64,000 nucleotides of DNA from Thermoplasmatota archaeon (GCA_038046725.1 JBBSVQ010000001.1:187780-251779); one strand, 5' to 3'. Shown: positions 23,639-57,248, counted from the stretch's first letter. The notes: generated by a model from the sequence alone, not told the origin. Translations and numbers: made by a program.

Positions 23639-23744
23639 GGATACAACCCGGCTACAACCGCTACACTGGTCCGCGGCCGATTGGGTCGTGTTGGGGGCAA
23701 GGGTCAGTTAAGCTCGTGGAAAGTATAGGCGTGATGCCGTACAG
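23639..23744. repeat. Copy A of a ~106-bp dispersed repeat (64-nt conserved 5' block, 25-nt variable middle, 17-nt conserved 3' block)
   Basis: GGATACAACCCGGCTACAACCGCTACACTGGTCCGCGGCCGATTGGGTCGTGTTGGGGGCAAGG...GGCGTGATGCCGTACAG is near-identical to 29544..29649. It lies in a convergent intergenic region. Confidence 0.6.
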
Positions 23745-23776
23745 GTTCCGCACATAACGGGTTGGATTCAAGCGTC

Positions 23777-24751
23777 TTATTGGACCACAAAGTCGCCAAT
23801 CATGCCGTGCGTGCGGTGGTTGCCGACGTCACAGTAGAAGATGGTGGTCATTGCGCCGCCCACGGTGAATGTAATGGTGTCCGTCTGGCCTGCGTTAAGC
23901 GGCGCAGTCTTTGCAATGGAGGCTGATTCGCCGACCCAGATGTCGTGGCGGCGGTTCTCCGGGTCGAAGTTGCCGTAGTGCAGGCGAATCTCGTGGTTGG
24001 TTGGCACGATGATATCGGCTGGCGAGTACCCGTAACTTCCAGTCTGGTCGTTGGTCTCCACAAAGAGCTCCCAAATGGGCAGTCCGGCGGAGTTGGTCTG
24101 CCCGGTCTCCTGGCCGGTGTATCCAGATGGGGGCGGGCTCGATGAGGTGGTGGTCGAGGATGAACTGCTGGCTTGGCTTGCGGTGGTCGTCTGGCTTGAC
24201 GAGGCCGTTGTTGTCCCGGTTGCTGTGCTGCTGGATGTTGTCGTCGATGTCGAAGCGACCGTGCCGTTTGAGGGGTCGCTCGTTGGCTGCGTGGTCGTTG
24301 TTGGTCCGAATCCGCTACGGTCGAACTCAACGGGTTCCAACTCGTCCCACACGATGGAGCCGCCATACCAGCCTGTGCCCACGACGAGAGCGGCGGTGAC
24401 CCAGAGCGCGCCCAGCCAAGCCCAAGCGCCCTTCTGCAGGAAGGTGGCACGGAAGATCCAGGCGAGAATGGCAAGCAGGCAGGCGGCCACCGCCGTGGCA
24501 ATCCCTAGGATCTGATGGGTGGAGATCCAATCTTCTTTCTCGGTGCCTTCCCACTCCTCTTGGGCGCTGTCTTTCTCCAGCAGGCCCGTGCCGACGGCGA
24601 CGACTGCCGAAAGGGCCGCCGCGATGAGCAGTGGGGGAACGGCCTGCGTGACCCATGGCCACCACCGCTTCAGGCTCGCCGCCAAGGCCGCCAGCGGAAG
24701 CAGAATCAACGGGGCGTGGACGACCAGCGGATGGAAGACGGGCGGAATCAT
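23777..24751 (-). CDS. Membrane-anchored halocyanin/plastocyanin-like blue copper protein
   Basis: N-terminal TM helices, a long Ser/Thr-rich linker (TTTSSSTATGTTTASSSQTTTASQASSSSSTTTSSS), then a C-terminal cupredoxin domain with ...TIFYCDVGNHRTHGMIGDFVV (Cys/His/Met copper ligands). Confidence 0.7.
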   Translation of the reverse strand: MIPPVFHPLVVHAPLILLPLAALAASLKRWWPWVTQAVPPLLIAAALSAVVAVGTGLLEKDSAQEEWEGTEKEDWISTHQILGIATAVAACLLAILAWIFRATFLQKGAWAWLGALWVTAALVVGTGWYGGSIVWDELEPVEFDRSGFGPTTTTQPTSDPSNGTVASTSTTTSSSTATGTTTASSSQTTTASQASSSSSTTTSSSPPPSGYTGQETGQTNSAGLPIWELFVETNDQTGSYGYSPADIIVPTNHEIRLHYGNFDPENRRHDIWVGESASIAKTAPLNAGQTDTITFTVGGAMTTIFYCDVGNHRTHGMIGDFVVQ

Positions 24752-24895
24752 CGACGGCACGACAGCGACTGGCCGAAGGCACACTTAACGGATTTCAAAG
24801 GGTTCCGCGACTCGTTTCGCCGTAGTCGTGCCCGCATGGCCGTGGCCGGCCTCAATGGTTTTGAGGCCGGCAAGGCGTGCGTTGCTGGGTCCACT

Positions 24896-25396
24896 ATGAC
24901 CAAGCACCTTCTCGCTCCAGTCGCTCTCTTCCTGGCCCTCGCGCTCTCGGGGTGCTCGTCCAATGGCGAGGGGACGCTGCAGGTGCAGGTCACCGACTTG
25001 CCTGGCGACATCGCGGACTTCAGTGCCCTACCCGTGACCGTCTCCTCGATCGAGCTCACCATGAAGGATGGGGGGAAGGAAAGCTACGCTCCATCCGATG
25101 GGACCTTCGACCTGACGACGCTGGTCAACGGCAACACGACCACCCTCTTCAAGGACGACGTCAAGGCAGGCAACTACACTCGCCTCGCCCTCAAGGTTCG
25201 CGACGCTACGGGGACTCTCAAGTCGGGCGGCCAAGTCGCAGTGACCACCCCCGGCGGCACGCTGTTCTTGGAGCAGGCCTTCACGGTCAAGGAAGGCGAG
25301 GAAACCAATTTCCTGTTCGATGTCGTGGTCCACAAGGAGGGCAACGGCCAGTACATCTTCCAGCCCAACGCCAGCGGCAGCCGCGTCACCAATTAG
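24896..25396 (+). CDS. DUF4382-like secreted lipoprotein
   Basis: Lipobox LALALSGC, then ...LQVQVTDLPGDIADFSALPVTVSSIELTMKDG...FDLTTL.... Paralogous to 25551..26504. Confidence 0.55.
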   Translation: MTKHLLAPVALFLALALSGCSSNGEGTLQVQVTDLPGDIADFSALPVTVSSIELTMKDGGKESYAPSDGTFDLTTLVNGNTTTLFKDDVKAGNYTRLALKVRDATGTLKSGGQVAVTTPGGTLFLEQAFTVKEGEETNFLFDVVVHKEGNGQYIFQPNASGSRVTN

Positions 25397-25550
25397 CGGG
25401 GCAAGCCGAGCGGAAATTGGCCAGCGTTTGCAATGGCCTACGCAGTCCATGTCCCCGGGCGCACGGCAAACCATGGCGTCCTGCGTACCCATCCTTCAAT
25501 GGCCGCCAACATCCGTTCATATACTCCGGACGACCGGTAAGGGGTTGGCG

Positions 25551-26504
25551 ATGAACGTGAACCGCACGCCCACTCCGAAGCTTGCTGGCCTGCTGGCCAT
25601 GACCTCCCTTGCCCTCGTGGCCCTTGCCGGCTGCTCGTCCCAATCCTCGGATGAGGGCTCCCTGGCCCTCTACGTCAAGGACGCCCCCTTGGACCAGTAC
25701 GACCAGCTGCGCGTGACCATCACACGCGCCGAGGCCCTGCCGGACCAGGCCAGTGACTGGGTCACGGTCTACGATGGCGAGAAGACCGTCGACCTGCTTG
25801 CATTGCAGAGCCCGACCGCGAAGGAGAAGCTCGCCGAGCTCGGCGTCCCCGCCGGCCCCTACTCGGGCCTGCGCCTGGCCATCAGCGAGGCCGTCGGCAT
25901 CGACGCCAACGGCACCGAATACCAACTCGTCGTCGCCGGCAACGTCCTGACCGTCTTGGAGTCCTTCGAGATCGGCAAGGGCGCCGACCTGAGCCTCCTG
26001 CTCGACATCGACACGAACGCCAGCGCCTCCGAACCGGGCCTCTTCGCCCCGCAAGCCAAGGCCCTGCGCTCCAGCCACGCTGACCAGGACCAAGACGGCG
26101 TCGACGACGTCGAGGACGCCGACTACAACGCGACCGAATCGCCCCGCCAGGAGCGCAGCAACCTGTACGGCCTGTGCACCGCCTGGATGGCCAGCGAGAC
26201 GGCCCGCGAGCACGGCAACGCCACCGACAACAGCACCGCCTTCGCGCGCCTTGGCGAGAACGCCACGGACGCCGGCCAGTCGCTGGAGGATTTCTGCGAC
26301 GCCCAGCCCTTCCCGGGCAAGTCGGACGCCATCCCTGAGGACGCCCAGGAGGCCCGCCAGGCCGCCATGGAGCGCCGCGAACAGGCCGGCAACGGCACCG
26401 CGGGCCGCCCCACGTCGACCCCGAGCCCGAGCGCCCACCCGACGGGCGCCCCCGAAAACCAGACGCAATCGACCAGCCGCAGCGGAACCCACGGCCCCCC
26501 GTAG
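25551..26504 (+). CDS. DUF4382-like secreted lipoprotein with acidic low-complexity C-terminal extension
   Basis: Lipobox LVALAGC, then ...LALYVKDAPLDQYDQLRVTITRAEAL...VDLLALQ..., paralogous to the preceding gene. The C-terminus is rich in N-glycosylation-like N-x-T/S sequons. Confidence 0.55.
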   Translation: MNVNRTPTPKLAGLLAMTSLALVALAGCSSQSSDEGSLALYVKDAPLDQYDQLRVTITRAEALPDQASDWVTVYDGEKTVDLLALQSPTAKEKLAELGVPAGPYSGLRLAISEAVGIDANGTEYQLVVAGNVLTVLESFEIGKGADLSLLLDIDTNASASEPGLFAPQAKALRSSHADQDQDGVDDVEDADYNATESPRQERSNLYGLCTAWMASETAREHGNATDNSTAFARLGENATDAGQSLEDFCDAQPFPGKSDAIPEDAQEARQAAMERREQAGNGTAGRPTSTPSPSAHPTGAPENQTQSTSRSGTHGPP

Positions 26505-26580
26505 GCCCGCAAGCGCGTTCGACCGACGCACCCTTGACCCCCTCTCTCCCTTCCCATTCCAATCCTCAAGGTGAACCCCC

Positions 26581-27558
26581 ATGAAGACGACGGCCTGGTG
26601 CATCCTCCTGCTGCTGGCGCTCGTGCCGCTGGCCGTGGCGCAGGGCCCGCCGTCGAGCCACGGCCCCCCGACGTCCACTCCAAGCGGCAGCCCGCCCTCG
26701 GACGCGGGCAATGTCAGCTCCCAGGACCGCCCCAGCGAAACGCCCAGCGCGACGGGCCAGCCGACCTCGATGCCTTCGACCGGACCCCGCGAACCGGCCG
26801 TCGACATCCAGGACGCGCAAGGCGGATTCGGCGCCCGACCAAGCGACCCCGACAGCAGGCGCCCCTCGTTCAGCTACAACGCCAGCCGCGCCGAAATCGC
26901 CCTCGACCACGCGGACGCCCGCGTCCTCGACACCGTCATCGACGCCATCATCGAGTTCCAGGACGAGGACGGCGACGGCGCCTACGACCTCGGCGAGACC
27001 ATCCACCAACGCCTCGCCCTCAGCGACCTCCCCTCCAGCGTCCACGATGCCGGGGACTCAACCCGTGACGCTGTCTACGAGTTTCCCAATGGAGGCAACC
27101 TGACGCTGCGCTTCCACCTCGCGCCCACGGGTGATGGGGAGGCGACAAAGTTCGACGTCGCCATCCACGACTTCCCCGTCAACTCAACGACCAGCCGAAT
27201 CGCCGTCGGCCTGCGCGTCGAGGCCCTCGAAGGCCTGCGCGTCGCCACCGTGCACGGCGCCCCCGCACTCGTCGGCAACGGCACCGGCCAAGTCCCGTTC
27301 CTGTCCTGGGCCCAAGGTGCCCTGGTCGACGGCCAGCAAATCGCGGTCGCTTCGAGCATCCAGCTCGACGCCGGCGGCCCCGGCGCCGTCATCTACTGGG
27401 CCTACCCGCAGGGCGAGATCCTGCACGACCCTATCCTCGGAATGACAAGCTTCACGCTCCCCAGCCTCGGCGACCCAGTCGTCTTCGCGGTCGCCCTTGG
27501 GGCGGGAGTGGTTTTTCTGGCCGTCGGCTTCGAGGCGCGCCGGAGGTACAAGCCGTGA
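26581..27558 (+). CDS. Secreted Pro/Ser/Thr-rich protein with C-terminal membrane anchor
   Basis: Signal peptide MKTTAWCILLLLALVPLAVAQG and C-terminal TM helix PVVFAVALGAGVVFLAVGF followed by RRRYKP. No recognisable domain. Confidence 0.5.
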   Translation: MKTTAWCILLLLALVPLAVAQGPPSSHGPPTSTPSGSPPSDAGNVSSQDRPSETPSATGQPTSMPSTGPREPAVDIQDAQGGFGARPSDPDSRRPSFSYNASRAEIALDHADARVLDTVIDAIIEFQDEDGDGAYDLGETIHQRLALSDLPSSVHDAGDSTRDAVYEFPNGGNLTLRFHLAPTGDGEATKFDVAIHDFPVNSTTSRIAVGLRVEALEGLRVATVHGAPALVGNGTGQVPFLSWAQGALVDGQQIAVASSIQLDAGGPGAVIYWAYPQGEILHDPILGMTSFTLPSLGDPVVFAVALGAGVVFLAVGFEARRRYKP

Positions 27559-27818
27559 CCCTGCTGCTGAATGCCAGCGTCGCCCTCCTTGCCCTCGTCG
27601 CAACAGCCCTCGCCATCCTCGCGTTCATTGGTTGGACCAGGAACCGCACCGGCCGCCTCGCCATGCTGGCAATTGGCTTCGGCATCGTCGCCGCGGCGGG
27701 CATCATCACGGCCATCGGCATGTTCACCAGCCAAACACCGGTGGCCATGCTGACGTGGCAAAGCCTGCTCCTCGCCGCCGGCTTGTTCGTCGTCTACTTG
27801 GCAGCCGTGAAGCGTTGA
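27555..27818 (+). CDS. Small 3-TM membrane protein (GTG start), partner of the downstream wHTH regulator
   Basis: Three hydrophobic helices, with a 4-nt overlap onto the stop of the upstream gene. Same architecture as 30256..30528. Confidence 0.45.
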   Translation: MTLLLNASVALLALVATALAILAFIGWTRNRTGRLAMLAIGFGIVAAAGIITAIGMFTSQTPVAMLTWQSLLLAAGLFVVYLAAVKR

Positions 27819-27829
27819 CCCAACGAACC

Positions 27830-28420
27830 ATGCTTCTCCACCCGCCCAACCTCTTGCAGGCGGCCGTCCTCCTCGTCGCCGCGAAAGGCGAGGAAGGCGG
27901 CAACAGGCGCCGCGTCTACGCCATCGTGGCCGAATTCCCGGGCTTGCACCAGAACGACATCGCCCGCCGCCTTGGCATCAGCGGCAACGCCGCCGACCAC
28001 CACCTGCGCCAACTCGTCCGCGCCGGGCTCATCTCCCGGCAGGAGGAAGCCTCGTTCGTGCGGTTCTACGTCCGCGTGCAAGGCACCGTGGCGCCCGAGG
28101 GAGCCGTTGGGGAAGCCGACAAGCCCAAACTGGCACTCCTGCGAAAGGCCCGCCCCTTGGAGATTGTCGCCCAGCTTCTGGTCAACGGCCCCAGCACGAT
28201 GGGCGATGTCGCCAAAGCCCTCGGCGTCACGCCTGGAAACGTCACGCACCACGCGGCCAACCTGGAAGCCGCCGGCATCCTGACCCGGACCCAGCAAGGC
28301 CGGGAGCGGATCCTCGACCTCGCAAACCGTGACGACACCATCCGGCTGCTGCTAGCGTACGAACCTCCGGCGGACCTCGTCGCCGGCTTCGATGACCTCT
28401 GGCAGGAGGTCGGATTCTGA
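27830..28420 (+). CDS. ArsR-type transcriptional regulator with two winged-HTH domains
   Basis: Two HTH units (...RRRVYAIVAEFPGLHQNDIARRLGISGNAADHHLRQLVRAGLIS... and ...RPLEIVAQLLVNGPSTMGDVAKALGVTPGNVTHHAANLEAAGIL...). Confidence 0.65.
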   Translation: MLLHPPNLLQAAVLLVAAKGEEGGNRRRVYAIVAEFPGLHQNDIARRLGISGNAADHHLRQLVRAGLISRQEEASFVRFYVRVQGTVAPEGAVGEADKPKLALLRKARPLEIVAQLLVNGPSTMGDVAKALGVTPGNVTHHAANLEAAGILTRTQQGRERILDLANRDDTIRLLLAYEPPADLVAGFDDLWQEVGF

Positions 28421-29466
28421 TGCGCACAATTTCCCTGGTCCTAGTCGCTGCCATTGTCATGGCAGGTTGCCTCGCCGGCACCAAGTCCGACAATGGCGCG
28501 CAGCCGACCGGCACGACAGACACCACCAACGCCTTGACAGCCACCGAAAAACCGGTGGCCCCACAAGAGGACGCCCTTGCCCCGACAACAGGGGCCGGTC
28601 AACCGATCCAAGAAGGAAACTTCGGCGGCAGCCTGGTGCATGACGGCGTCGAACGCACGTACGAGCTCCACGTCCCACCAGGACTCTTGTCCAATCAATC
28701 GATTCCCTTGATGCTCGTCATCCATCCGGCCCTTGCCAATGCCGCCGCGGTGCACGGTGGCTTCGGATTCGACTCCTACGCCGACGAGCACGGATTCATC
28801 ATCGCCTATCCTGACGGCACCCGTGAAGAGGCGGGCAGCGACGAGCGGACCTGGAACGCCATGCACTGCTGCGGCGTCGGCCACTCGACCAACGTCGACG
28901 ACGTGGGCTTCCTCTTGGACCTCATCGCCAAGATGCGCCGCGACTATCCCCTCGACGCCGGCCACATCGGCTTGGTCGGCCACAGCAACGGCGCCATGCT
29001 AGCCCACCGCTTCGCCGCCACCCATAGCGAACTCGTCTCCTCCGTCACCGCCGTTGGTGGCACCATCGGAGGACAAGAGGACCGCTTCTCGCCGCAGCTG
29101 CAAGTCCCGGATCCCTCAAGCCCAGTCTCAGTCCAGATTATTCACGCCTACGACGACCCCATCGTCACCTATTACGGCGGCCCCAACCGCGGCTTCTACG
29201 AGCGCAACCGCCTCGACACACCCGTCCGTGATTCAGTGGACTTCTGGCGGGACTACGACGGCGCAACCGAGAAAACCGGAAGCTGGAGCGACAACGGCGT
29301 CGACTACGAGACCTACCGGGCCCCCGACGGGACCGAGGTCGACCTGGTCTCCACGAACGGGGGACACGGCTGGCCCGGCTCGGGACAGCCAATCCCGAAA
29401 ATCGTCAAGGTGCCGCCATTCCCTCACGCGACTCTGCTGGCCGTGGAATTTTTCCTGGCCCATTGA
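28420..29466 (+). CDS. Secreted alpha/beta-hydrolase esterase (PHB depolymerase/LpqC-like)
   Basis: Lipobox IVMAGC, ...VERTYELHVPPGL...PLMLVIHPALANAAA...GFIIAYPDGT..., and the nucleophile elbow ...LVGHSNGAMLA.... Confidence 0.75.
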   Translation: MRTISLVLVAAIVMAGCLAGTKSDNGAQPTGTTDTTNALTATEKPVAPQEDALAPTTGAGQPIQEGNFGGSLVHDGVERTYELHVPPGLLSNQSIPLMLVIHPALANAAAVHGGFGFDSYADEHGFIIAYPDGTREEAGSDERTWNAMHCCGVGHSTNVDDVGFLLDLIAKMRRDYPLDAGHIGLVGHSNGAMLAHRFAATHSELVSSVTAVGGTIGGQEDRFSPQLQVPDPSSPVSVQIIHAYDDPIVTYYGGPNRGFYERNRLDTPVRDSVDFWRDYDGATEKTGSWSDNGVDYETYRAPDGTEVDLVSTNGGHGWPGSGQPIPKIVKVPPFPHATLLAVEFFLAH

Positions 29467-29473
29467 GCACGCG

Positions 29474-29493
29474 GTTGTAGCCGTGTTGTAGCC
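29474..29493. promoter_or_regulatory. Tandem direct 9-mers GTTGTAGCC (x2, 11-bp register) facing inverted copies inside repeat copy B
   Basis: GGTTGTAGCCGTGTTGTAGCC here. GGCTACAACCCGGCTCCAACC at 29545..29565 is the inverted partner. The same word starts the three 35-bp motifs at 37435, 38999 and 40061. Confidence 0.35.
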
Positions 29494-29543
29494 ACGGCCT
29501 AACGGACATACTAACGTACCCTGTCGTGGTTGTGAGTGCGGAT

Positions 29544-29649
29544 GGCTACAACCCGGCTCCAACCGCTACACTGGTCCGCGGCCGATTGGGTCGTGTTGGG
29601 GGCAAGGACTAGCTAACCTCGCAGCAGGCTTGGGCGTAATGCCGTACAG
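29544..29649. repeat. Copy B of the ~106-bp dispersed repeat
   Basis: The 64-nt block is about 95% identical to copy A. The 25-nt middle differs, and the 17-nt 3' block GGCGTAATGCCGTACAG is conserved. Confidence 0.6.
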
Positions 29650-29735
29650 TTGAGCTCATTGGCGTCATTCCACCCGAAAAAGTCTGCTTTGCACAACCGA
29701 CCAGTTGACGCCCAAAGCCAGAACCCCCAAGTCGG

Positions 29736-30254
29736 CTAGGGTCCCCGCATGCCGTCCGCGCCTTCGACCAAACGGTCAATCATGCGGTCCATGATGCTGC
29801 TCTGATACGTGATCGCCAATCGCATGACCGCGTCGCCATCGATGACGCGATAGACGGCCTCGCGACCTTCGCGACTGGCTTCAATCAGGCCGGCTTCGAC
29901 GAGATGCTGGAGATGATAGTTGGCGGTGCTGGACGCCAAATCCAGCCCCGCGAGAATCGCAGCCTTGGATTGTTGGCCATGCTCGATGAGCCAAGCGAGG
30001 ATGCGGCGCGGGATGGTTTGGCGCAAGAATGCGACCCGACGCTTGTCTTCTGCGTCCATCCGGGCCGGGAAGAACCGCTTGTTCCCGTCTTGGACGACGG
30101 TGACCAAGTTCGCAGCGACCAGTTGTTCGAGATGGTACTCCAAGGTACCCATGGAGCCGAAGACGCGTTGGAGCTCGCGCAAGTATTGGCCGGGGTGGCG
30201 CAACAGGTGCTGGTAGAGGTCCCGTCGGGCCTCCAGCGCCAAAGCTTCGCGCAC
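29736..30254 (-). CDS. ArsR-type regulator with two wHTH domains (paralogous architecture to 27830..28420)
   Basis: ...LYQHLLRHPGQYLRELQRVFGSMGTLEYHLEQLVAANLV... and ...RRILAWLIEHGQQSKAAILAGLDLASSTANYHLQHLVEAGLI.... Confidence 0.65.
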   Translation of the reverse strand: MREALALEARRDLYQHLLRHPGQYLRELQRVFGSMGTLEYHLEQLVAANLVTVVQDGNKRFFPARMDAEDKRRVAFLRQTIPRRILAWLIEHGQQSKAAILAGLDLASSTANYHLQHLVEAGLIEASREGREAVYRVIDGDAVMRLAITYQSSIMDRMIDRLVEGADGMRGP

Positions 30255-30255
30255 G

Positions 30256-30528
30256 TCAATCCCGCGTCATGCTCAGGAAGAACAGCAACAGGATCAGGCA
30301 GTCGGCGATGATTCCGATGGTCTCGAACAAGTCGTTTTGCTCTGGGAAGATGAGTTCGGTGCCGATGAAGAGGCTCTTCAGGAAGAACACGGCGAAGGCT
30401 GCCATGAAGAACATCAGCCTCTTCGTTCGGGCGCGCCGGTACGCCTGCGCCGAGAAGTAAAGCATCACGGCGGCAAACAGCGGGACGAGCAGACGGAAGA
30501 TGTCGTGCAGTTCGATGGGTTCAGCCAT
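30256..30528 (-). CDS. Small 3-TM membrane protein, upstream partner of the regulator
   Basis: Three TM helices. Its stop is 1 nt from the start of 29736..30254. Confidence 0.5.
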   Translation of the reverse strand: MAEPIELHDIFRLLVPLFAAVMLYFSAQAYRRARTKRLMFFMAAFAVFFLKSLFIGTELIFPEQNDLFETIGIIADCLILLLFFLSMTRD

Positions 30529-30699
30529 GGGTCATCCGGGAGATGGTTTGGCACTTGAAAACCCGGTCGATGTCACAACCGGACAACAGCAGGGCGAGAG
30601 TTGAAGCAATGATGAGAGGGACTGGGCGCATGGTTGGGACTCCGGTTTCAAGGGCGGAATGGGGAATCGAAAGGGAAGAGGGGGGAAAATGGCGACGAA

Positions 30700-31026: not shown

Positions 31027-31106
31027 GGGGTCACATCCCCGGCATGCCGGGTTGAAGGGGAATCCGTGGCCGTTGTATACTCCGTTTTCAGGACAGGGTT
31101 CGCCGA

Positions 31107-31440
31107 TTAGGACATGGGTCGCCGCGAGAGCCACCCCATGACTCCCCCGCAGGTTGTTGTTTGGCGCTTCTTGCCTTGCCGGTGTCCCGTGACCAGACCG
31201 TACTCCATGAGGCATGCAACGTCTTCGCTGACGTTCTTGGCGTCCCGCTTGAGGGCGGCGGTGAGTTGCTTGACGTTGGCTTCTCCGAGTTCCCGCAGGA
31301 CTTCCAAGATGTGCAGCCTGGTTCACGTCAGTTTGCTGAGGTCTGCCTCATCCAGGAGCAAGACGTCCTGCAGGTTGAACTCCAGCTTGAGTCGCTTCGG
31401 GTCTTCCTCGAAGAGCTTGCAAGGCTGCCGTTGTCATCGG
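31107..31440 (-). pseudogene. Degenerate partial duplicate of the wHTH regulator gene 36675..37109
   Basis: About 85% nucleotide identity to 36721..37000 over roughly 280 bp. A frameshift and substitutions break the frame; only a 66-aa ORF (MEVLRELGEANVKQLTAALKRDAKNVSEDVACLMEYGLVTGH...) survives. Confidence 0.55.
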
Positions 31441-32086: not shown

Positions 32087-32094
32087 GAGTCACC

Positions 32095-32202: not shown

Positions 32203-32214
32203 TGGTGTGACTCC

Positions 32215-33606
32215 CTAGACTTCAATGCCGACCATGGCCGGGATGAGGACGACGATCAAAGCGACGATGATGCCGACGCCGAAACCCAACCCGACTGGCA
32301 TGCGTTGCTCGCGGGCCCGCAGCTCCGGCAACAGTTCGGCCAGGGCGATGAAGATGAACGTGGCCGCAGCGAGGGCGACGAGGTGTCCCACCAGCTTCTC
32401 GCTGCCGACGAGGAAGATGCCGACCAGGCTGCCGACGGGCGTCAACGCGGCCATGATGGCGATGCCACCGAGGACCTTGCGGCGACGCCAGGCGGCGGCG
32501 AGGAAGACGCTGGCAGCTGCGATGCCATCGGGGAACTGGTGGATGAGCACGGCACTCGCCGCGGCGAAGCCGACCGCGCTGTCAAGCTCGAAGGCGGCCG
32601 GCAGGACGAGGCCGTCCACGAAGCGGTGGAAGCCGAGGGCGAAGAACGCGACCAAGGCCAAGCCGGCGGCATGGGTCGCGACGCGCTCGTGCCCGGCGGC
32701 GTCGTGCGCTTCCTCGTGGCCGTGCTCGTCCTCCGCGTCGTGCGCATCGTGCGGGTGGCCGGCATGGTCGTGGCCGTGGTCACCCGCGAAGTGACGCACC
32801 AGGAACAGGACGACTAGGCCGCCCACGATGGTGAACGGGGCAGCCTCATTGAGCTCGATGGCCTCCGGGATGAGGTCGAGGACCGCGATGGCCAGCAAGA
32901 GGCCCGCCGTGGCCCCGAGCAGGAAGTGGATGCGGCGCTGGGACACGGTCCGGCCGGCGATGGCCATGACGCCGGCCAGCAGCGTGATGGCGCCCGCCAA
33001 GACGGCGATGCCGAGGACCCAGGGCAGGCTGAGGCCGGACCCGGACGTCACGTCGCCGCCATCGTCGCCGCCAGGTCCGGGGGGCGCGGCAAGATTCGCT
33101 TGGATGGCGTGCAACCTGGTGGACGGCGAGCCGCACACGATGGAGACGGATTGCCCAAGCGGCGCAGGGCCCGTCTTGGTCAAGGTGACCGTGATCACGA
33201 CGGGGCCGGTCACGTTGTCCGCAGCCGGGACACTGAACGCCAGGGTGGCCGGGGAATCGACGGCCGTGCCGGCGCCGTACGCCTTGGAGGCCTGGGCCGG
33301 CGGCGCGGAGCCGATGGCCAGGGTCGCGGCCACGGTGAAACCCGTGCCCGGAGTGGCCCCTTGCGCGAAGGCGAGGCTGAGGAGCGCGGACTGCTCCGGC
33401 ACCGCGTACGTCCCGTTGAAGGGCGCGCCCTCGAACGTGCCCGTGACCGTGTTGGCTCCACCGGTCGCCAGGGTCAGGCAGTTGCTGGCCGAGCCAGGTT
33501 CAGCGGCCAGGCTTCCGTCGGCGCGCAGGTAGAGGTCTCCCGAACTGGCGGCGCTGGCCAGGGGCGCCAACAGCAGGAGCGCGAGCACGGCGGTTCGTCG
33601 GTTCAT
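32215..33606 (-). CDS. ZIP-family metal transporter fused to an N-terminal secreted domain
   Basis: Signal peptide MNRRTAVLALLLLAPLASAASS, then a ~200-aa Ala/Thr/Gly-rich extracytoplasmic domain. ZIP core with an intracellular His-rich loop (GDHGHDHAGHPHDAHDAEDEHGHEEAHDAAGHE) and ...HQFPDGIAAASV.... The upstream 238 codons of ORF 32215..34323 are Arg/His junk. Confidence 0.8.
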   Translation of the reverse strand: MNRRTAVLALLLLAPLASAASSGDLYLRADGSLAAEPGSASNCLTLATGGANTVTGTFEGAPFNGTYAVPEQSALLSLAFAQGATPGTGFTVAATLAIGSAPPAQASKAYGAGTAVDSPATLAFSVPAADNVTGPVVITVTLTKTGPAPLGQSVSIVCGSPSTRLHAIQANLAAPPGPGGDDGGDVTSGSGLSLPWVLGIAVLAGAITLLAGVMAIAGRTVSQRRIHFLLGATAGLLLAIAVLDLIPEAIELNEAAPFTIVGGLVVLFLVRHFAGDHGHDHAGHPHDAHDAEDEHGHEEAHDAAGHERVATHAAGLALVAFFALGFHRFVDGLVLPAAFELDSAVGFAAASAVLIHQFPDGIAAASVFLAAAWRRRKVLGGIAIMAALTPVGSLVGIFLVGSEKLVGHLVALAAATFIFIALAELLPELRAREQRMPVGLGFGVGIIVALIVVLIPAMVGIEV

Positions 33607-33611
33607 GGGGT

Positions 33612-34643
33612 TCACGTCGCCGGCCAACCGCAGCTTGCGGAGTCGCATTGGCCACTTGGGTCTTCCACTTGCACGGTGACGTGCCGGATCTTGTATGTGT
33701 CGCGCAAGTGGCGAGCGATGTTGATGCTGAGGTTGTCGTTCTCGCGGGGTCCCTTGAGGTTGATGTGGACCGTCAAGGCGTCGAGGCCGGTGCCGATGTG
33801 CCAGATGTGCAGGTCGTGGATGTCCCGCACGTTGGGCATGCCGCGCAGGTCGCGGGCAACCGCATCCGCGTCGACGCTGTCGGGCGTTCCCTGCATGAGG
33901 ATGTGAAGGGTCTCCCGCGTGAGCTTCCACGTGAACAGGAGGATGAGGATGGTGATGAAGATCGTCAGGATGGGGTCGGCGACGTGCCAGCCCTTGTAGT
34001 AGATGAGGACACCAGCGACCAAGGCAGCGGCGGAGCCAAGCACGTCCGACAGGATGTGCACGTACGCGGCGCGGACGTTGATGTTGTGGCCGGAGCCGGC
34101 ATGCAGGACGAAGGCCAACCCGATGTTCGTGACCAGCGTGAGTGCGCCGATGGCCATCACGACCGGACCATGGACCTCGGGAGGGTTGCTGATGCGGACG
34201 TAGGCTTCCCAGAGGAAATAGACGGAGATGCCCCACAGCACGAGGGCGTTGACGAAGGCCGCGATGACCTCGGCGCGTTGGTGCCCATAGGTCCGGCGCT
34301 TGTCGGCGGGTTTCAGGGCCCAAGACACGGCGAGGAACGCCAGGAGGACGGCGCCGACATCTGTGGCGTAATGGCCCGCGTCTGCCAGAAGGACCAAGGA
34401 ATTGGCCGCGAGGCCGCCGGCGATCTCGGCGACCATGACGAGTGTGCCGGCGAAGGCGACGAAGAGGAGGCGCTTGCGGTTCTTGACTGCCATCTCCTTC
34501 AATTCGGAGCCGTGGTCGTGTCCATCGTGGCCATGTCCGCCGCTTCCATGGTCGTGGCCCGAATGGTCGTGTCCGTCGTGGTCGTCGTGGTGCCCATGGT
34601 CCTCCGCATGCCCTTTGGCAGACGGCTGGGCCCCGCCTGCCAT
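33612..34643 (-). CDS. Cation diffusion facilitator (CzcD-like) with His-rich N-terminal tail
   Basis: N-tail ...HAEDHGHHDDHDGHDHSGHDHGSGGHGHDGHDHG.... Six TM with ...LLADAGHYATD... and ...HVHILSDVLGS..., plus the C-terminal cytoplasmic domain. Confidence 0.85.
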   Translation of the reverse strand: MAGGAQPSAKGHAEDHGHHDDHDGHDHSGHDHGSGGHGHDGHDHGSELKEMAVKNRKRLLFVAFAGTLVMVAEIAGGLAANSLVLLADAGHYATDVGAVLLAFLAVSWALKPADKRRTYGHQRAEVIAAFVNALVLWGISVYFLWEAYVRISNPPEVHGPVVMAIGALTLVTNIGLAFVLHAGSGHNINVRAAYVHILSDVLGSAAALVAGVLIYYKGWHVADPILTIFITILILLFTWKLTRETLHILMQGTPDSVDADAVARDLRGMPNVRDIHDLHIWHIGTGLDALTVHINLKGPRENDNLSINIARHLRDTYKIRHVTVQVEDPSGQCDSASCGWPAT

Positions 34644-34787
34644 CGGGAGCCCCGAGGCGCTGCGCGGGTTTGGCCGGGGGTTGCTACCGACGGTCTCTTC
34701 CACGTCTTCTGTCCAAGGCGCACAGGATATCAGGTGGCTGCTAAGCGGGCCGCCTTCTTTTCATAAGCCCTAGAGGCCGCCGTGGAA

Positions 34788-35162
34788 TCAGATGGGCGCT
34801 GGCGTGACGCGGACGCCGTCGATCTTGGTCAGAGCGTCCAGCAACTCGTGGATGCGCGGGCCGTCGCCGTGCAGGATCAGCGAGTCGACGCAGGTCCCTT
34901 CCAAGTGGTGGTGGAGACTGGTGCTGACGAGGTCGTCGAACTCGTGGGCCACGCGGTTGACCTCCTCTTGGCTGCGGTCGGCCTCGTACACCAAGGTGAG
35001 CGCCATGTGGACGTGGCCCTCGAATTTCATCTGGTGCATCGCGATGAAGTGCTGCAAGGCCGCGCGAACGGCGCTGGAGCGGCTGCCGAAGGCGAAGTGC
35101 TCGACGAGCTTGTCGAATTGCTTGAGTTCCTTGCCGGACAGCGAGACGGAGATGACGGTCAT
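34788..35162 (-). CDS. NikR-like metal-responsive regulator (RHH + ACT-like metal-binding domain)
   Basis: N-terminal RHH MTVISVSLSGKELKQFDKLVEHFAFGSRSSAVRAALQHF, C-terminal ...HVHMALTLVYEADRSQEEVNRVAHEFDDLVSTSLHHHLEGTCVDSLILHGDG.... The upstream part of the ORF is Arg-rich. Confidence 0.65.
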   Translation of the reverse strand: MTVISVSLSGKELKQFDKLVEHFAFGSRSSAVRAALQHFIAMHQMKFEGHVHMALTLVYEADRSQEEVNRVAHEFDDLVSTSLHHHLEGTCVDSLILHGDGPRIHELLDALTKIDGVRVTPAPI

Positions 35163-35221
35163 GGAGGTCGCGGGGCCGGCGTTTGCAGGGTCAAAGGAGT
35201 ACAGGGACTTGCCGGAGGCGG

Positions 35222-35638
35222 TCACCCCAACGGCTGGGGTGGGCCCTTGGCGAACCAGCGGGCGTAGTAGCGCTTCTTGCTCACCAGTTGCAGGATGCCC
35301 AGGATGACGATGGCGACGCCGATGCCGAGGTGGACGAGGACCGCGATTCCGGGCGGGAACAGGAAGTCGTGGATGGCGAGCAGGCTTCCGAGAAAGAAGG
35401 CGACGAAGCCAAAGACCAAAGGTGCCGAGCCTGACCGCCGGACCAAGGCCAACACTGCGACGACGATTCCGGCCACGGCCAGAATCGGTCCGCCGGCCCA
35501 TACGGCGATCTCCAGCGGATTGCTGACGGCGGCGAGGACGAAGGCGCCGAGCACGATGAGGACGACGCCGAAGCCGACCTCAATGGGCGCCATGGACCGG
35601 GTGGGCTTGGGCTGCTTGGAGCCTTTGGCGGTGGCCAT
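35222..35638 (-). CDS. Integral membrane protein (4 TM), hypothetical
   Basis: Four TM helices with normal composition. Confidence 0.45.
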   Translation of the reverse strand: MATAKGSKQPKPTRSMAPIEVGFGVVLIVLGAFVLAAVSNPLEIAVWAGGPILAVAGIVVAVLALVRRSGSAPLVFGFVAFFLGSLLAIHDFLFPPGIAVLVHLGIGVAIVILGILQLVSKKRYYARWFAKGPPQPLG

Positions 35639-35812
35639 CTGCGTGCTTCGAACTCCAGGCAACGCTTGAAGTGTGTCCTAAGAACGGGCTCGGTTCTTAG
35701 TAAGGTCAGCGGAACCCCGGGCTTCCAGGGCAAGGCAAGCCACCGCGGCGGCGAGGCCCACGATGGCCCAGAGCAGCGGACGCCAGTCCTTGCGGACATC
35801 TCGTGCTTGACG

Positions 35813-36460: not shown

Positions 36461-36674
36461 CGAGCGACATACACCGAGGCAGAGACATGAACGCGTCGGA
36501 CGCCCTACGTTCGGTCGACGCTCCACGTGCTTCGCATATGGATGCCCGAGTTGCGAGACCAAGGGCGTGGTCGTCCGGGGGCGGTGAGTGGCCCTGCTGC
36601 TCGGCCCGCCGGCATCCCCAACGTAACGGCACCTGCAGGGAGGTTCGATTTCGGGCGACCCCAGGGGAATGGCC

Positions 36675-37109
36675 TCAGACTGAGATTACGATCTGGTTGC
36701 CGGCGAGCTGGACGAGCTTCTCTTTGCCGTCCCGATGGCCGGTCACCAATCCGTACTCCATGAGGCAAGCGACGTCTTCGCTGACGTTCTTGGCGTCCCG
36801 TTTCAGGGCGGCCGTGAGTTGCTTGACGTTGACTTCGCCCAACTCGCGCAGAACCTCCAAGACATGGAGCCGGGTCCACGTCAGTTTGCTGAGGTCTGCC
36901 TCGTCGAGGAGCAAGACGTCCTGAAGGTGGAAGTCGAGCTTGAGGCGCTTCGGATCCTCCTCGAAGAGCTTGAGGTTGAACAAAGCGTCCTTGGCTTCCA
37001 TGTCGCCCTTCTTGGCAAGCTTCGCCACGGCCTCGCGGCTGCCGTACTTCGCCAGGATCTCGGTTCGCATCTCGAGTCCGGTCATTTGCCGCTTGATTCG
37101 GATTTCCAT
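36675..37109 (-). CDS. wHTH transcriptional regulator (intact parent of the 31107..31440 pseudogene)
   Basis: ...RLHVLEVLRELGEVNVKQLTAALKRDAKNVSEDVACLMEYGLVTGHRDGKEKLVQL.... The alternative start MTGLEM would remove the overlap with 37082..37360. Confidence 0.6.
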   Translation of the reverse strand: MEIRIKRQMTGLEMRTEILAKYGSREAVAKLAKKGDMEAKDALFNLKLFEEDPKRLKLDFHLQDVLLLDEADLSKLTWTRLHVLEVLRELGEVNVKQLTAALKRDAKNVSEDVACLMEYGLVTGHRDGKEKLVQLAGNQIVISV

Positions 37110-37360
37110 GTCTTGACCTCCTGTTTCAATTTCTCCAAGTTGAATGAGTTGTGCTTCGCGCGGTAGCGTCGCATGATGGCATCCGCCTCCGCTGCAGACC
37201 CGACACTAACATTGGGGCCGGCTCCGGGGTCACTTGGATGGTGCAGATGCGTGCCATGGTGATGCGCGTGATTGTAGCGGCAGATGCGGTAGTCAAAAGA
37301 AGGATCGAGGACGGACCATTCGCCGCCCTCGTTCTCCTGCCGCCGCAGCCGCCACTTCAC
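37082..37360 (-). CDS. Small K/R-rich-N-terminus protein, member of a three-gene paralogous family
   Basis: MKWRLRRQENEGG...SAAEADAIMRRYRAKHNSFNLEKLKQ aligns with ...GEATAEIRAWAKDYIARNKAMLDLM (39859..40011) and ...DEGAETRAWAKDHIERNRGRH (38809..38946). The 35-bp motif lies 75 bp upstream. Confidence 0.35.
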   Translation of the reverse strand: MKWRLRRQENEGGEWSVLDPSFDYRICRYNHAHHHGTHLHHPSDPGAGPNVSVGSAAEADAIMRRYRAKHNSFNLEKLKQEVKTWKSESSGK

Positions 37361-37434
37361 GATTGGTCGAATAGACCATGGGTTTTTGGGCTACTTAACG
37401 ATTGGTGTTAGACGCCAATTGATGCCGGAGCGGT

Positions 37435-37469
37435 GTTGTAGCCATCCGCTACCAGACCCCGCAGCAAGT
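37435..37469 (-). promoter_or_regulatory. Conserved 35-bp upstream motif, copy 1
   Basis: GTTGTAGCCATCCGCTACCAGACCCCGCAGCAAGT. It aligns without gaps with copies at 38999 and 40061. Confidence 0.4.
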
Positions 37470-37551
37470 CTGCTGGACCGGCCAACGGTGGAGAGTCGGC
37501 GTCGCGGCTAGAGCCGTTCCAGGGCCTTGTAGTTGGTCTGGAAGCTGGCGG

Positions 37552-38808
37552 CTACGCCGGTTCGCGTTCGACTTCGTCGCGCAGGTCCAAGGCCTGCATA
37601 GCGCTGATCCCAAGGGCCATGGCGACCTCGGCGAGGTGGCGCTCCTCGCGACGCGTGAGTGTCCCATCTCGCATCGCCGCGCGCAAGGCCGCCTTGTAGC
37701 CTGCGACCGCCGAAGTCGATGCTGCGGTGTCCGGTCTCGACCGGTCGGAGGAGCGCTCGATGGCGCGTTGGATTGGGCTCGCTGCGAACACGAAGGTGCC
37801 GGCCAGGATGCCGCCCATGAGCAGGCCGTATTCGGCGCTGAAGAAGTTCTGGGCCACTTGGGCGACGATGAAAAGGACGGCCAAAGCCCCACCTGCAAGG
37901 ACTCCGCTGCGGACCGCGACCCGTGTCCATGGGACCTTGAGGAGGTCGTGCTTCACGATGGCGAAGGCGAGCAGAGTGGCGCTGATGGTACGCAGAATGC
38001 CAAAGGCACCGTAGTCCTCGCTGCCGTCGCCGACGAGGACGACGACGAGCGCCAAGGCGCCGGCGGCCAGCAAGGCGATGAACGCCGACCGGGCCAGACG
38101 GGGCTCGCGGCCCGCTGAAGGGACAACGAACGCGGCGGCACCAATGGCGGCAGACGAGGCGTGCACGAAGAGGCCGGCGTAGGCCAACCACGCCTCCCAA
38201 CGGTCGACCGCGAGCGGCGCCGACGCGTTGAAGACACAAAGGAAAATCGTGAAGAGGCCGAAGGCCAGCGTCAGGCCGACCATCGCCCGACGATCATGGC
38301 TGGCCGTGACTGGCTCCGCGTGGAAGCGGGCGACGCACGCTGCAAGCAGCACGATGAACGCACTGATGTTAGCCGAAAGGACTGACCCCACGACAACGGC
38401 ATCGATTCCAGTCCCGAAGATGGCGATGGCCGCCCGCTCCTCGAAAGCCCCCCAAAAGGCAACCATAACGCCCACCCAGGCAAGTGCCTGCACCACGGCC
38501 ATCGACGCGACGAAACGTCGCCAAGAGGGCGTCACGCCCTTGGTCAGATGGATGGCCAACGCCACGGCCAGCAAGAACACGGGGAGTGTGAGGGCCGCGA
38601 CGATCCAAGGCTCTGGCCCGGCCGTTGCCCTGTCGTAATCGAGAAGGTTCTCGGAGATTAAGGCAAGGCCCCACGACCCTGACAGGCCCCCGATCAGGCG
38701 GCCGCGCTGCGTGCCGCGCCCCCTGACGAGGATCACGGCGCCGAGGGCGAGGAACAGGAACGCGCCGCCTGCGTTGATGAGGGCGGACAGCGAAAGGTCG
38801 TACTGCAC
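37552..38808 (-). CDS. Polytopic membrane protein (about 10 TM) with C-terminal soluble helical domain
   Basis: TM-rich throughout, GTG start. C-terminal ...GTLTRREERHLAEVAMALGISAMQALDLRDEV.... Confidence 0.55.
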   Translation of the reverse strand: MQYDLSLSALINAGGAFLFLALGAVILVRGRGTQRGRLIGGLSGSWGLALISENLLDYDRATAGPEPWIVAALTLPVFLLAVALAIHLTKGVTPSWRRFVASMAVVQALAWVGVMVAFWGAFEERAAIAIFGTGIDAVVVGSVLSANISAFIVLLAACVARFHAEPVTASHDRRAMVGLTLAFGLFTIFLCVFNASAPLAVDRWEAWLAYAGLFVHASSAAIGAAAFVVPSAGREPRLARSAFIALLAAGALALVVVLVGDGSEDYGAFGILRTISATLLAFAIVKHDLLKVPWTRVAVRSGVLAGGALAVLFIVAQVAQNFFSAEYGLLMGGILAGTFVFAASPIQRAIERSSDRSRPDTAASTSAVAGYKAALRAAMRDGTLTRREERHLAEVAMALGISAMQALDLRDEVEREPA

Positions 38809-38946
38809 TCAGTGCACTCTCCGCGTCGTCGCGACGTGACGACCGCGGTTGCGCTCGATGTGGTCCTTGGCCCACGCGCGCGTCTCGGCCCCTTCGTCGC
38901 CGTAGAGGGAATCGCTGACGCGCGACGCTGAGAGCTTGCCCTCCAC
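38809..38946 (-). CDS. Short or remnant paralog of the small K/R-protein family (GTG start, 45 aa)
   Basis: (V)EGKLSASRVSDSLYGDEGAETRAWAKDHIERNRGRHVATTRRVH. Its stop abuts the start of the membrane protein gene. The 35-bp motif is 53 bp upstream. Confidence 0.3.
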   Translation of the reverse strand: MEGKLSASRVSDSLYGDEGAETRAWAKDHIERNRGRHVATTRRVH

Positions 38947-38998
38947 GACGTCATCGAAACCCGAAGGAGGCCATGAGGCTTGCGCGGGTTGGCCAACT

Positions 38999-39033
38999 GT
39001 TGTAGCCGTCCGCCACCAAACCCCGTAGAAGGT
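38999..39033 (-). promoter_or_regulatory. Conserved 35-bp upstream motif, copy 2
   Basis: GTTGTAGCCGTCCGCCACCAAACCCCGTAGAAGGT. Confidence 0.4.
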
Positions 39034-39189
39034 TGCATTCAGGTCTTGCGCCCAATCTCCTTGAGCTTCGTCTCGAACCCGGCGTAGAACCGCCGCGCCG
39101 GGTGGTCGGGATTCCGCAAGGCGGCCACCGTTGATAGCGAGCGTAACCCATTGGGTTAAGCATATAACGTGTAACGTGCATAGTTACGC

Positions 39190-39516
39190 GTGGATGTGGA
39201 GCGCTTCCTGGTCCCAGTCGGCCAGGACCTCGTCATCCGCGTCGAGTTGCGCAAGAAGGCAGGCCGATTGGCAGGCTTCGTCTGTCAACTTGAGGCAGAC
39301 GATGGCGAGGACGTCGTTCCGGTCGTCCGGTACGACACCAGCCACGGCTACCTGCATGTGCACAAGTATTGGCTCTCCGAGGAACGGGAAGTGAAGGACA
39401 TGGAAGACCGCAACCATCCAGCCACCGACTACACGACCCAATTGGACGAAGCCCTCGACAATCTCGTCGAACACCACGTGGACTACGTCGCGCGCATGAA
39501 GCGCGCAGGAAAGTGA
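39190..39516 (+). CDS. Hypothetical protein (GTG start), tightly coupled to the downstream wHTH gene
   Basis: VDVERFLVPVGQDLVIRVELRKKAGRLAGFVCQLEADDGEDVVPVVRYDTSHGYLHVHKYWLSEEREVKDM.... There is a 5-nt gap to the next gene. Confidence 0.4.
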   Translation: MDVERFLVPVGQDLVIRVELRKKAGRLAGFVCQLEADDGEDVVPVVRYDTSHGYLHVHKYWLSEEREVKDMEDRNHPATDYTTQLDEALDNLVEHHVDYVARMKRAGK

Positions 39517-39521
39517 ACCCG

Positions 39522-39854
39522 ATGACCAAGACCGACATGCGCCGCGCCGCCGACTTCATCCGCAAGGTCGCCAAGGCCCCCGCGGGAGCCTACCCGGATT
39601 CCTTCATCGCTTTCGAGTGGGGGAGCCCGCTCCTCTTGCAGATCATGAGCGGCGAGAAGAGCCGCCTCATCGAGTACCTCAAGGAACACGGCCCCGTCGA
39701 AAGCGTCACGACGCTAAGCCAGGCCTTAGGCAGGTCCCGGGAAGCCGTGAGCCGCGACCTGCACGTCCTCGTCAAGACCGGAGTCATCCTTGCCGAGCAG
39801 CATGGAAAGACGAAGACGCTCTCGGCTAGCGAACGACCAATCCTAATTCGCTAG
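39522..39854 (+). CDS. wHTH transcriptional regulator
   Basis: ...IEYLKEHGPVESVTTLSQALGRSREAVSRDLHVLVKTGVILAEQHG.... Confidence 0.5.
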   Translation: MTKTDMRRAADFIRKVAKAPAGAYPDSFIAFEWGSPLLLQIMSGEKSRLIEYLKEHGPVESVTTLSQALGRSREAVSRDLHVLVKTGVILAEQHGKTKTLSASERPILIR

Positions 39855-39858
39855 TCAT

Positions 39859-40011
39859 TCACAGGCGCGCCATCAAGTCGAGCATGGCCTTGTTGCGCGC
39901 AATGTAGTCCTTCGCCCAGGCACGGATTTCGGCCGTCGCTTCCCCATACAGGGACTCGTCGCGCGGCTTGCGAGTCTTGCGCGGCTTGCGAGTCTTGCGC
40001 GGCTTGGGCAT
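39859..40011 (-). CDS. Small K/R-rich protein with tandem PRKTRK repeats (50 aa), family member 3
   Basis: MPKPRKTRKPRKTRKPRDESLYGEATAEIRAWAKDYIARNKAMLDLMARL. Not in the ORF track (under 60 aa). The 35-bp motif is 50 bp upstream. Coordinates may be off by 1 nt. Confidence 0.4.
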   Translation of the reverse strand: MPKPRKTRKPRKTRKPRDESLYGEATAEIRAWAKDYIARNKAMLDLMARL

Positions 40012-40060
40012 GCGTCTACGAGGCCGCCCATTCGCATGAGACTTGCGCGGCTACGAGCGT

Positions 40061-40095
40061 ATTGTAGGAATCCGCTATCGGACCTCGCAGAAGGT
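40061..40095 (-). promoter_or_regulatory. Conserved 35-bp upstream motif, copy 3
   Basis: ATTGTAGGAATCCGCTATCGGACCTCGCAGAAGGT. Confidence 0.4.
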
Positions 40096-40188
40096 CGCGT
40101 TAAAGCCTCCAACAGGAGAGAATTCGAGCCCGACTTATCGCGACTAACGCACCTTGTAGTAGGTCCAGGCGCGGATGCTGGCAATTCG

Positions 40189-40306
40189 CCTACAAATCTC
40201 CCCCAATCCTCTCACAGTTGGGGTAGAATTGTGGGCGAACGGTGGGCCATTTTGGGGGCAATCGCTACCGAACATCTTGCCACCTATAGGCCTCATGCCG
40301 TACCAG
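40189..40306. repeat. Divergent copy C of the ~106-bp repeat family
   Basis: CCTACAAATCTCCCCC...TTGGGGGCAATCG...GGCCTCATGCCGTACCAG shares the CTACAA start, the TTGGGGGCAA block and the ATGCCGTAC(C)AG 3' block with copies A and B. Confidence 0.4.
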
Positions 40307-57246: not shown

Positions 57247-57248
57247 CG

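Follow-up and report, generated by a model that had tools for sequence, protein, structure and literature searches.

Three intergenic elements, A, B, and C, in a 64,000-nucleotide (nt) stretch of DNA from a Thermoplasmatota archaeon (GCA_038046725.1; JBBSVQ010000001.1:187780-251779; this whole stretch is called the window, and positions are counted from its first letter) belong to one family of homologous non-coding repeats and do not resemble each other by chance. The 5′ block of these elements is a separable module that was also found upstream of real genes. The latter point is absent from the initial annotation of this DNA, which had described a dispersed repeat with conserved ends around a variable core. 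What might such elements do? The reading that I tentatively favour, from the arrangement of the sequence motifs, is that they are promoter/operator modules that were duplicated locally and that, in A, B, C, and a homologue, L003, in a second genome, also have a leader-like extension.

In a repeat scan of the window, A (23633-23744) and B (29538-29649) appeared as a 112-nt direct repeat with 86% identity, 5905 nt apart. Their 64-nt 5′ blocks (23639-23702 in A and 29544-29607 in B) have two mismatches, and their 17-nt 3′ blocks (23728-23744 and 29633-29649) have one. The spacer between the two blocks is exactly 25 nt in both copies, just as the initial annotation had reported. Its statement that the similarity is not random was also borne out, since dinucleotide shuffles of the window give an expectation of 0.00-0.02 matches for 19-27-nt sub-blocks of A and B; no third site of these sub-blocks exists in the window. 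The flanks of A and B diverge at about 45% of positions and the 64-nt block at 3%. The near-identity of the block fits either a recent gene conversion or a strong, operator-like constraint at the nucleotide level.

The full element of copy A lies at 23599-23750 on the plus strand. It consists of a 5′ module (23599-23664; nhmmer E=1e-10) with a predicted ATG-like +1 at 23637 and a 3′ part (23673-23750; E=1e-21) with a terminal ATGCCGTACAGGTTCC. The full element of copy B (29499-29654, plus strand) has a 5′ module at 29499-29569, in which TAAC at -30 precedes the ATG at 29542, and a 3′ part at 29578-29654; a TATAGG box in the latter is degenerate in B (CTTGGG). Copy C (40135-40310, plus strand) has its ATG at 40175 with TAAC at -30, and represents a divergent subtype common to C and L003. 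It shares TTGGGGGCAA-N33-ATGCCGTAC with A and B, with the 33-nt spacing unchanged, and has a private hairpin insertion at about 40196-40224. This 33-nt spacing between the blocks is constant in all four full-length copies (A, B, C, and L003). Thus, C, which had been listed as a divergent copy, is a true homologue linked to A and B via L003.

Is the element present in other genomes? A pattern scan with one genome per species gave 10 loci, only one of which is homologous. This is L003, located in a Thermoplasmatota metagenome-assembled genome (MAG), JBAZXE010000004.1. L003 is 72% identical to C over 171 nt (E=6e-19) and 74% identical to A over 88 nt (E=1e-8). The longest identical stretches of C and L003, 23 and 20 nt in length, are both in the 3′ part. 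In the second genome, the element occupies the whole stretch from a double AsnC-type regulator gene to a co-directional gene for a membrane protein, which has no database relatives. The 3′ extension of L003 looks like an upstream control or leader region, judging from this position. An oxidoreductase open reading frame (ORF) of the L003 locus has 33% amino-acid identity to that of the window, and about three of the full-length sequences are independent. The initial annotation had named a relic of one local duplication as the outcome that would speak against it; the element is, however, also conserved in the second genome and is thus more than such a relic. A metagenome scan with TTGGGGGCAA-N31-35-ATGCCGTAC and variants found six loci, all of them chance matches, and four scans of viral collections with the same patterns yielded chance matches or none. 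In BLAST searches, A and C had no match among plasmids or phages.

The 25-nt core had been regarded as unrelated sequence and as a possible target-specific segment. Across the core, however, 17 of 29 positions are identical between A and B in an ungapped comparison, flanking bases included. The 3′ half of the core of A is identical to L003 at 13 of 15 positions, the 5′ half of the core of B at 9 of 14, and the core region of C at 23 of 29. Thus, by these alignments, the core is ordinary diverged homologous sequence, in which A and B appear to have each drifted in a different half. No complement longer than 10 nt to any core was found on either strand of the window. Neither description of the core is supported.

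The element is non-coding. The mismatches by codon phase are 11/10/12 between C and L003, 13/10/17 between A and L003, and 7/9/8 between A and B, showing no 3-nt periodicity. The conserved boxes are 49 nt apart in A and in B, 72 nt in C, and 61 nt in L003, so that no frame is kept, and length differences of 11, 12, and 23 nt between the copies break the frames.

A profile of the 5′ part, about 65 nt in length, matches A, B, C, L003, and three further sites in the window, D, E, and F (E 1e-10 to 5e-15). With a partial copy, B′, the window has six full copies and one partial copy of the 5′ module, all of them between 23.6 and 40.2 kb. In contrast, the 3′ part is confined to A, B, C, and L003 in the profile search. 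The copy list of the initial annotation was therefore correct for A, B, and C, but incomplete in total, as it lacked the four further copies of the 5′ part. No further copies were found in the rest of the window and 14.5 kb of the flanking contig (6.5 kb on the left and 8 kb on the right), about 61 kb in all. Thus, as far as can be seen, the family is small, local, and lineage-restricted, and is no genome-wide dispersed repeat. A possible distant copy at about 2600-2700 of the window was rejected, as its alignment scores are within or near the range of shuffled sequences.

The copies D, E, and F consist of the 5′ module only and are located 60-85 nt upstream of minus-strand genes. D (37421-37487, minus strand; E=8e-13) is about 85 nt upstream of an ORF of 92 codons (37082-37360, minus strand), which is followed by a winged helix-turn-helix (wHTH) gene (36675-37109, minus strand). 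A GTAGC/GCTAC dyad in D is centred on the ATG. E (38984-39049, minus strand; E=5e-12), with ACG in place of ATG, is about 63 nt upstream of a small gene of a family named SLYG here (38812-38946, minus strand), after which a gene for 418 amino acids follows (37552-38808, minus strand). F (40046-40115, minus strand; E=6e-13), with ATT in place of ATG and a TTTAAC box at -31, is about 60 nt upstream of another SLYG-family small gene (39862-40011, minus strand). F is head-to-head with C, and their 5′ ends are about 40 nt apart. B′ (29471-29494, minus strand; E=0.004) repeats the module's tandem GGCTACAAC boxes partially and in inverted orientation, without a mismatch to GGCTACAACNCGGCTACAACC, for which no match is expected by chance. 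The 21-mer made of the two boxes recurs in inverted orientation 50 nt upstream of B. B′ begins 7 nt past the stop codon of an esterase gene, into which it is oriented, and it is head-to-head with B, with 21-nt inverted arms and 50 nt between them.

The small gene downstream of F (MPKPRK...SLYGEATAEIRAWAKDYIARNKAMLDLMARL) is a paralogue of the one downstream of E, with 62% identity over 24 amino acids. Homologues of its product were found in public metagenomes as five small proteins of 38-71 amino acids with 69-76% identity, indicating that it is a real conserved small protein. One of these homologues, P0048 (MPTTCGTVQPG...SLYGEE...), begins with MPTT, which is the translation of the ATG-CCT-ACA-AC box of the module. 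This suggests that the box of the module precedes the P0048 gene in a third genome. The two paralogues of the window, about 45-50 amino acids in length, share the motif SLYG..AE.RAWAKD.I.RN..LDLMARL and belong to no significant Pfam family. A KPRKTR tandem repeat is present in the small gene at 39862-40011.

Of the seven full copies of the 5′ module, L003 and six in the window, four (B, C, L003, and F) have a TAAC box at -30 or -31 from the conserved ATG/TTG/ATT triplet. In the host genome, the AT content before the start codons peaks at -33 to -24 (0.46-0.52 versus 0.33-0.38; 42 genes of the window and its flanks). Thus, TATA-like boxes probably lie about 30 nt before the ATG, and the mRNAs are probably mostly leaderless. 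The position of the TAAC box agrees with this AT peak. In A, B, C, D, and L003, the arms GGTTGTAGCC and GGCTACAACC make up a dyad with its centre at -1.5 to +1 relative to the triplet, and two GGCTACAAC boxes, 11 bp apart, follow just downstream of the triplet. The 3′ part has three TTGKGGGC boxes about 12 nt apart, which share their half-site with the dyad's left arm. It also has two blocks of high conservation, TTGGGGGCAA... and (TATA)GGCNTNATGCCGTACMRGTTC.

The copies A, B, and C are located differently from D, E, F, and L003: the latter have a downstream gene, while A, B, and C face convergent genes instead. A is flanked by a GH15 glycosidase gene (ending at 23581, plus strand) and the convergent gene of a DUF2231/cupredoxin membrane protein (23777-24751, minus strand). 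B is flanked by the esterase gene (28420-29466, plus strand) and the gene of an HTH_20 regulator (ending at 29736, minus strand). The location of A and B in convergent gaps, as originally described, is therefore confirmed. C is flanked by a wHTH gene (plus strand) and the gene of a PAS histidine kinase (minus strand). The distance to the facing stop codon is 27, 82, and 47 nt for A, B, and C, respectively. The region from 20 to 43 kb is rich in metal genes (NikR, CDF, ZIP, and cupredoxin) and winged-helix regulators, and the wHTH types encoded beside the copies are HTH_20, HVO_A0114, and HVO_0163. Genes of local wHTH proteins are located at 27830-28420, 29736-30254, 36675-37109, and 39519-39854.

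On the reading that I favour, A, B, and C are members of a small, lineage-restricted family of paralogous non-coding intergenic modules in a metal-homeostasis/regulator island, whose copies would have arisen by local duplication. The 5′ module of about 65 nt would act as a portable archaeal promoter and operator, in which the (T)TAAC box would lie about 30 nt before the ATG-like triplet as the presumed +1. The half-sites GGTTGTAGCC and GGCTACAACC would place a dyad over this start site, with the tandem GGCTACAAC boxes just downstream, and a putative local winged-helix repressor bound there would occlude the transcription start. The 5′ module alone may serve the operons of small genes and regulators at D, E, and F. 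The 3′ extension of about 100 nt in A, B, C, and L003 may be a leader or an upstream control region. As the 3′ parts of A, B, and C in the window point at the 3′ ends of convergent genes, these copies might produce short non-coding or antisense transcripts only, or nothing. A, B, C, and B′ may be either orphan promoter-leader units that make antisense or short transcripts, or tolerated debris.

Archaeal promoters with a repressor operator over the transcription start are known, among them targets of MDR1-, Phr-, LrpA-, or TrmB-type regulators. The modules found here are similar to them in having a TATA-like box about 30 nt before the presumed start, a dyad on the presumed +1, and half-sites one helical turn apart, and also in their setting, with winged-helix regulator genes nearby and metal-related genes. 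They differ in that the regulator and the start site are putative and that three copies are without a downstream gene. In addition, such operators normally lack a long conserved downstream part, which is present here. Very little is known of the cis-regulatory logic of uncultured Thermoplasmatota. A conserved, duplicated promoter/operator-like module amid genes for copper, zinc, and nickel and many orphan regulators of the winged-helix type would offer a concrete operator sequence (the GGCTACAAC dyad) together with candidate regulators. Transcription of the orphan copies, if it occurs, would make them cases of promoters dedicated to antisense RNA in convergent gaps. If they are only duplicated debris, they are a record of how upstream regions are copied and reshuffled within an archaeal accessory island.

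Several observations weigh against a promoter/operator function. The TAAC box is missing from A, D, and E, and is only moderately AT-rich where present. A, B, and C have no gene to drive, given the convergent genes within 27-82 nt. A second TATA-like box, GTATAGG, is found in A, C, and L003 about 25-29 nt before the homology edge GGTTCC, and the start site may thus possibly lie at the 3′ edge of the homology instead of at the ATG-like triplet. In the window, such a start would be predicted some 3-5 nt beyond GGTTCC, at about 23752, 29656, and 40312 in A, B, and C, respectively. The 23- and 20-nt identities between C and L003 lie outside the putative core promoter and would also fit a functional RNA. 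Furthermore, the element is absent from the ZIP-transporter neighbourhoods of 10 related contigs, whose ZIP proteins are 38-68% identical to that of the window.

Could the elements be paralogous small RNA (sRNA) genes? They would then encode RNAs of about 110-170 nt made of scaffold blocks and a divergent target-selecting segment, or RNAs that are cis-antisense to the convergent cupredoxin, HTH_20, and histidine-kinase genes at their 3′ ends. I consider this unlikely. It would account for the blocks of 20-23 nt that are perfectly conserved between C and L003 in different genomes, for the promoter-like box upstream, and for the location of all three full copies of the window in convergent gaps, 27-82 nt from a facing stop codon. 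A helix between GCCUACAA and UUGUGGGC is possible in C and L003, where it closes a hairpin of variable length, but the homologous box of A and B does not retain it. The folding z-scores against shuffled sequences are +0.59 for A, +0.54 for B, -3.84 for C, and -0.83 for L003. Thus, A, B, and L003 fold no better than shuffles, while the predicted stability of C is due to its private hairpin insertion. RNAalifold on the four sequences, about three of which are independent, gave a consensus of -18.5 kcal/mol with an unfavourable covariation term of +0.44, and double changes were found in 4 of 21 pairs. In Rfam 15, no match reached the gathering score in the whole window. Around A and B, there were only matches with E>1, the best one having 16 bits versus a gathering score of 63, and no match at E<=1 was found for 36900-40450 or for positions 1-800 of L003. 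By these few independent sequences, the structured RNA envisaged in the initial annotation is not supported: the proposed search of Rfam returned no family, and the proposed RNAalifold comparison returned a weak consensus with no favourable covariation. Moreover, no complement of the core in the window exceeds 10 nt, and no copy is followed by a T-rich archaeal terminator.

Paralogous families of trans-acting or cis-antisense sRNAs resemble the elements in length (110-170 nt), in the presence of sibling copies, in the combination of conserved blocks with a divergent segment, and in the location between convergent genes. The elements here differ from them in being without a fold shared by the sequences compared, a terminator, and a predicted target, and in not being in Rfam 15. 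C/D-box and H/ACA sRNAs were rejected as candidates because their boxes are not conserved among the copies, and ARAGORN found no tRNA or transfer-messenger RNA gene in the window. It is rather doubtful, and more so than the sRNA explanation as such, that the elements are a hitherto undescribed kind of archaeal regulatory-RNA unit, which would bring a portable promoter into convergent gaps and direct transcripts, either antisense or short and trans-acting, against the 3′ ends of the cupredoxin, HTH_20, and PAS-kinase genes, with the core tuning each copy.

The elements might also be functionless relics, that is, pieces of upstream regions that were copied by local segmental duplication and tolerated in convergent gaps, with A and B partly homogenised by gene conversion. 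The confinement of all copies to 17 kb, with none in the other 61 kb or so of the genome read, would be expected for such relics. Other local duplications exist here as well, namely the one at 31146-31418, derived from the wHTH gene at 36675-37109, and the paralogous genes downstream of E and F. In addition, the truncation points differ among B′, D, E, and F, the TATAGG box has been lost in B, and the ATG has been lost in E and F. However, 72% identity with identical stretches of 20-23 nt between two MAGs whose oxidoreductases match at 33% amino-acid identity is not expected from neutral decay, and the 33-nt spacing of the blocks is kept in all four full copies. On balance, functionless relics are also an unlikely explanation, about as much as sRNA genes.

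A remnant of a mobile or recombination element, either a MITE (a miniature transposable element with inverted repeats) or sites like att or attC bracketing an inserted cluster of 5.9 kb, is very unlikely. Such an origin is suggested by the direct repeats A and B around a 5.9-kb block of accessory-looking genes, by the inverted pairs B′-B (21-nt arms) and F-C (arms of about 50 nt), by an IS5-like transposase fragment at 43278-43763, and by the location in convergent gaps, where repetitive extragenic palindromic (REP) elements and MITEs are often found. However, the 112-170-nt unit has no terminal inverted repeats, its ends CTAACG... and ...GGTTCC being not complementary, and the inverted boxes are internal to the unit or part of a neighbouring partial copy. 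No flanking direct duplications of a target site were found at A, B, or C. Neither the interval from A to B nor the gene list for 18-40 kb contains an integrase, transposase, or reverse transcriptase gene, and the IS5-like fragment, located 3 kb beyond C, has nothing in common with the element. There were no matches in viral, plasmid, and phage collections, and no copies elsewhere in about 78 kb of the genome. The MITE-like element that had been offered as an alternative in the initial annotation thus fails on the lack of terminal inverted repeats and target-site duplications and on the absence of copies from the other 61 kb or so that was read and from the 10 related contigs. REP elements, bacterial interspersed mosaic elements, and MITEs are likewise short non-coding repeats with internal inverted repeats and a preference for convergent gaps, but the family described here has neither terminal inverted repeats nor target duplications, and its seven copies are all within 17 kb, with none in the rest of the genome read.

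Integron attC sites have an R″-L″...L′-R′ layout forming an imperfect palindrome (RYYYAAC...GTTRRRY) and are accompanied by attI and an IntI recombinase in their vicinity, and attC sites and gene-cassette boundaries have also been reported in Archaea. The elements resemble attC in being about 100 nt long, with conserved ends and a variable centre, directly after an ORF. They differ in that their ends are not mutually complementary, that the order of the inverted boxes is GTT...AAC, the reverse of that in R″/R′ (AAC...GTT), and that no IntI-like recombinase is present. The attC candidate was rejected since there is no end-to-end palindrome, the box order GTTGTAGCC...GGCTACAAC of B′-B is reversed, and no recombinase domain was found among the listed genes. 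The att sites of an integrative element were rejected as well, since an integrase is not encoded between A and B and the window lacks tRNA genes. A template repeat/variable repeat pair of a diversity-generating retroelement was rejected because the mismatches between A and B are not adenine-specific, involving all four bases in both copies, and because both copies are intergenic; no reverse transcriptase was found in the annotated stretches. An origin-recognition box (a G-string with TGGAAA) was rejected, its G-string being wrongly oriented and the motif missing from B and C.

It is highly improbable that the 64-nt block of A and B is a leaderless micro-protein of 24 residues (M[D/A]TTRLQPLHWSAADWVVLGAR[V/T]S) and the core merely the sequence past its stop codon: an ATG (23637 in A and 29542 in B) does open a frame of 24 codons with TAA at the same core position in both copies, the block of high identity starts 4 nt ahead of the ATG and reaches codon 22, a synonymous change (CTA/CTC) accounts for one of the two differences of the 64-nt block, and TAAC at -30 in B fits a leaderless start, but the frame does not exist in C or L003 (a different sequence, no stop codon, and indels that are not multiples of 3), D has a different frame of 16 codons, the mismatches lack periodicity, and the almost complete lack of synonymous change against the flank divergence of about 45% shows conservation at the nucleotide level, pointing to gene conversion or a constraint on DNA or RNA. 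A minus-strand ORF in C (...NWYGMRPIGG...IRAWTYYKVR*), whose stop codon is kept in A, B, C, and L003, was rejected since it has no relative among 5.8e9 protein clusters, its frame is broken in A, B, and L003, and no periodicity was seen. A plus-strand frame, WGQ...MPY, with MPYRF as the start of the L003 membrane protein, was also rejected because the upstream frame is not kept; an AGG/CGG (Arg) difference between A and L003 in this frame is a single observation. As for the likeness between the SLYG small genes and the element's reverse strand (CTGTACGGC and ATCCGYGCCTGG), a match of this length is estimated to be expected by chance from the number of comparisons made, and BLAST found nothing.

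Some features of the surrounding genes were also recorded. The ORF at 31146-31418 (minus strand) is a truncated paralogue of the HVO_A0114-type wHTH gene at 36675-37109 (minus strand), with 86% amino-acid identity (residues 47-137) and 86% DNA identity over 249 nt. On either side of B, two paralogous gene pairs, 27555-28420 (plus strand) and 29736-30528 (minus strand), are convergent. Each encodes a DUF7521 small protein and a double-wHTH regulator (25% identity, E=2e-14), and the esterase gene lies between the plus-strand pair and B. At 32215-35501, the order of the NikR, CDF cation-efflux, and ZIP genes is conserved in 10 related Thermoplasmatota contigs, and the copper genes around them vary among these contigs (multicopper oxidases, CopC/CopD, and P-type ATPases). 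The region from 43000 to 47000 has a low GC content (55-59% versus about 65%) and contains the ORF of the IS5-like transposase fragment (DUF772; 43278-43763, plus strand) and ORFs that match nothing in Pfam, and probably represents foreign or degraded mobile DNA. From 47591 to 64000 and beyond, a defence island encodes an SNF2/PLD helicase, a MORC-like HATPase, DUF1828/1829, an N6/N4 methyltransferase, a ResIII helicase, and an AAA_21 ATPase, and ends with a Dcm methylase, Vsr, and a BglII-type endonuclease. A near-identical block of this defence island was found in a second sample, ERR3858122.

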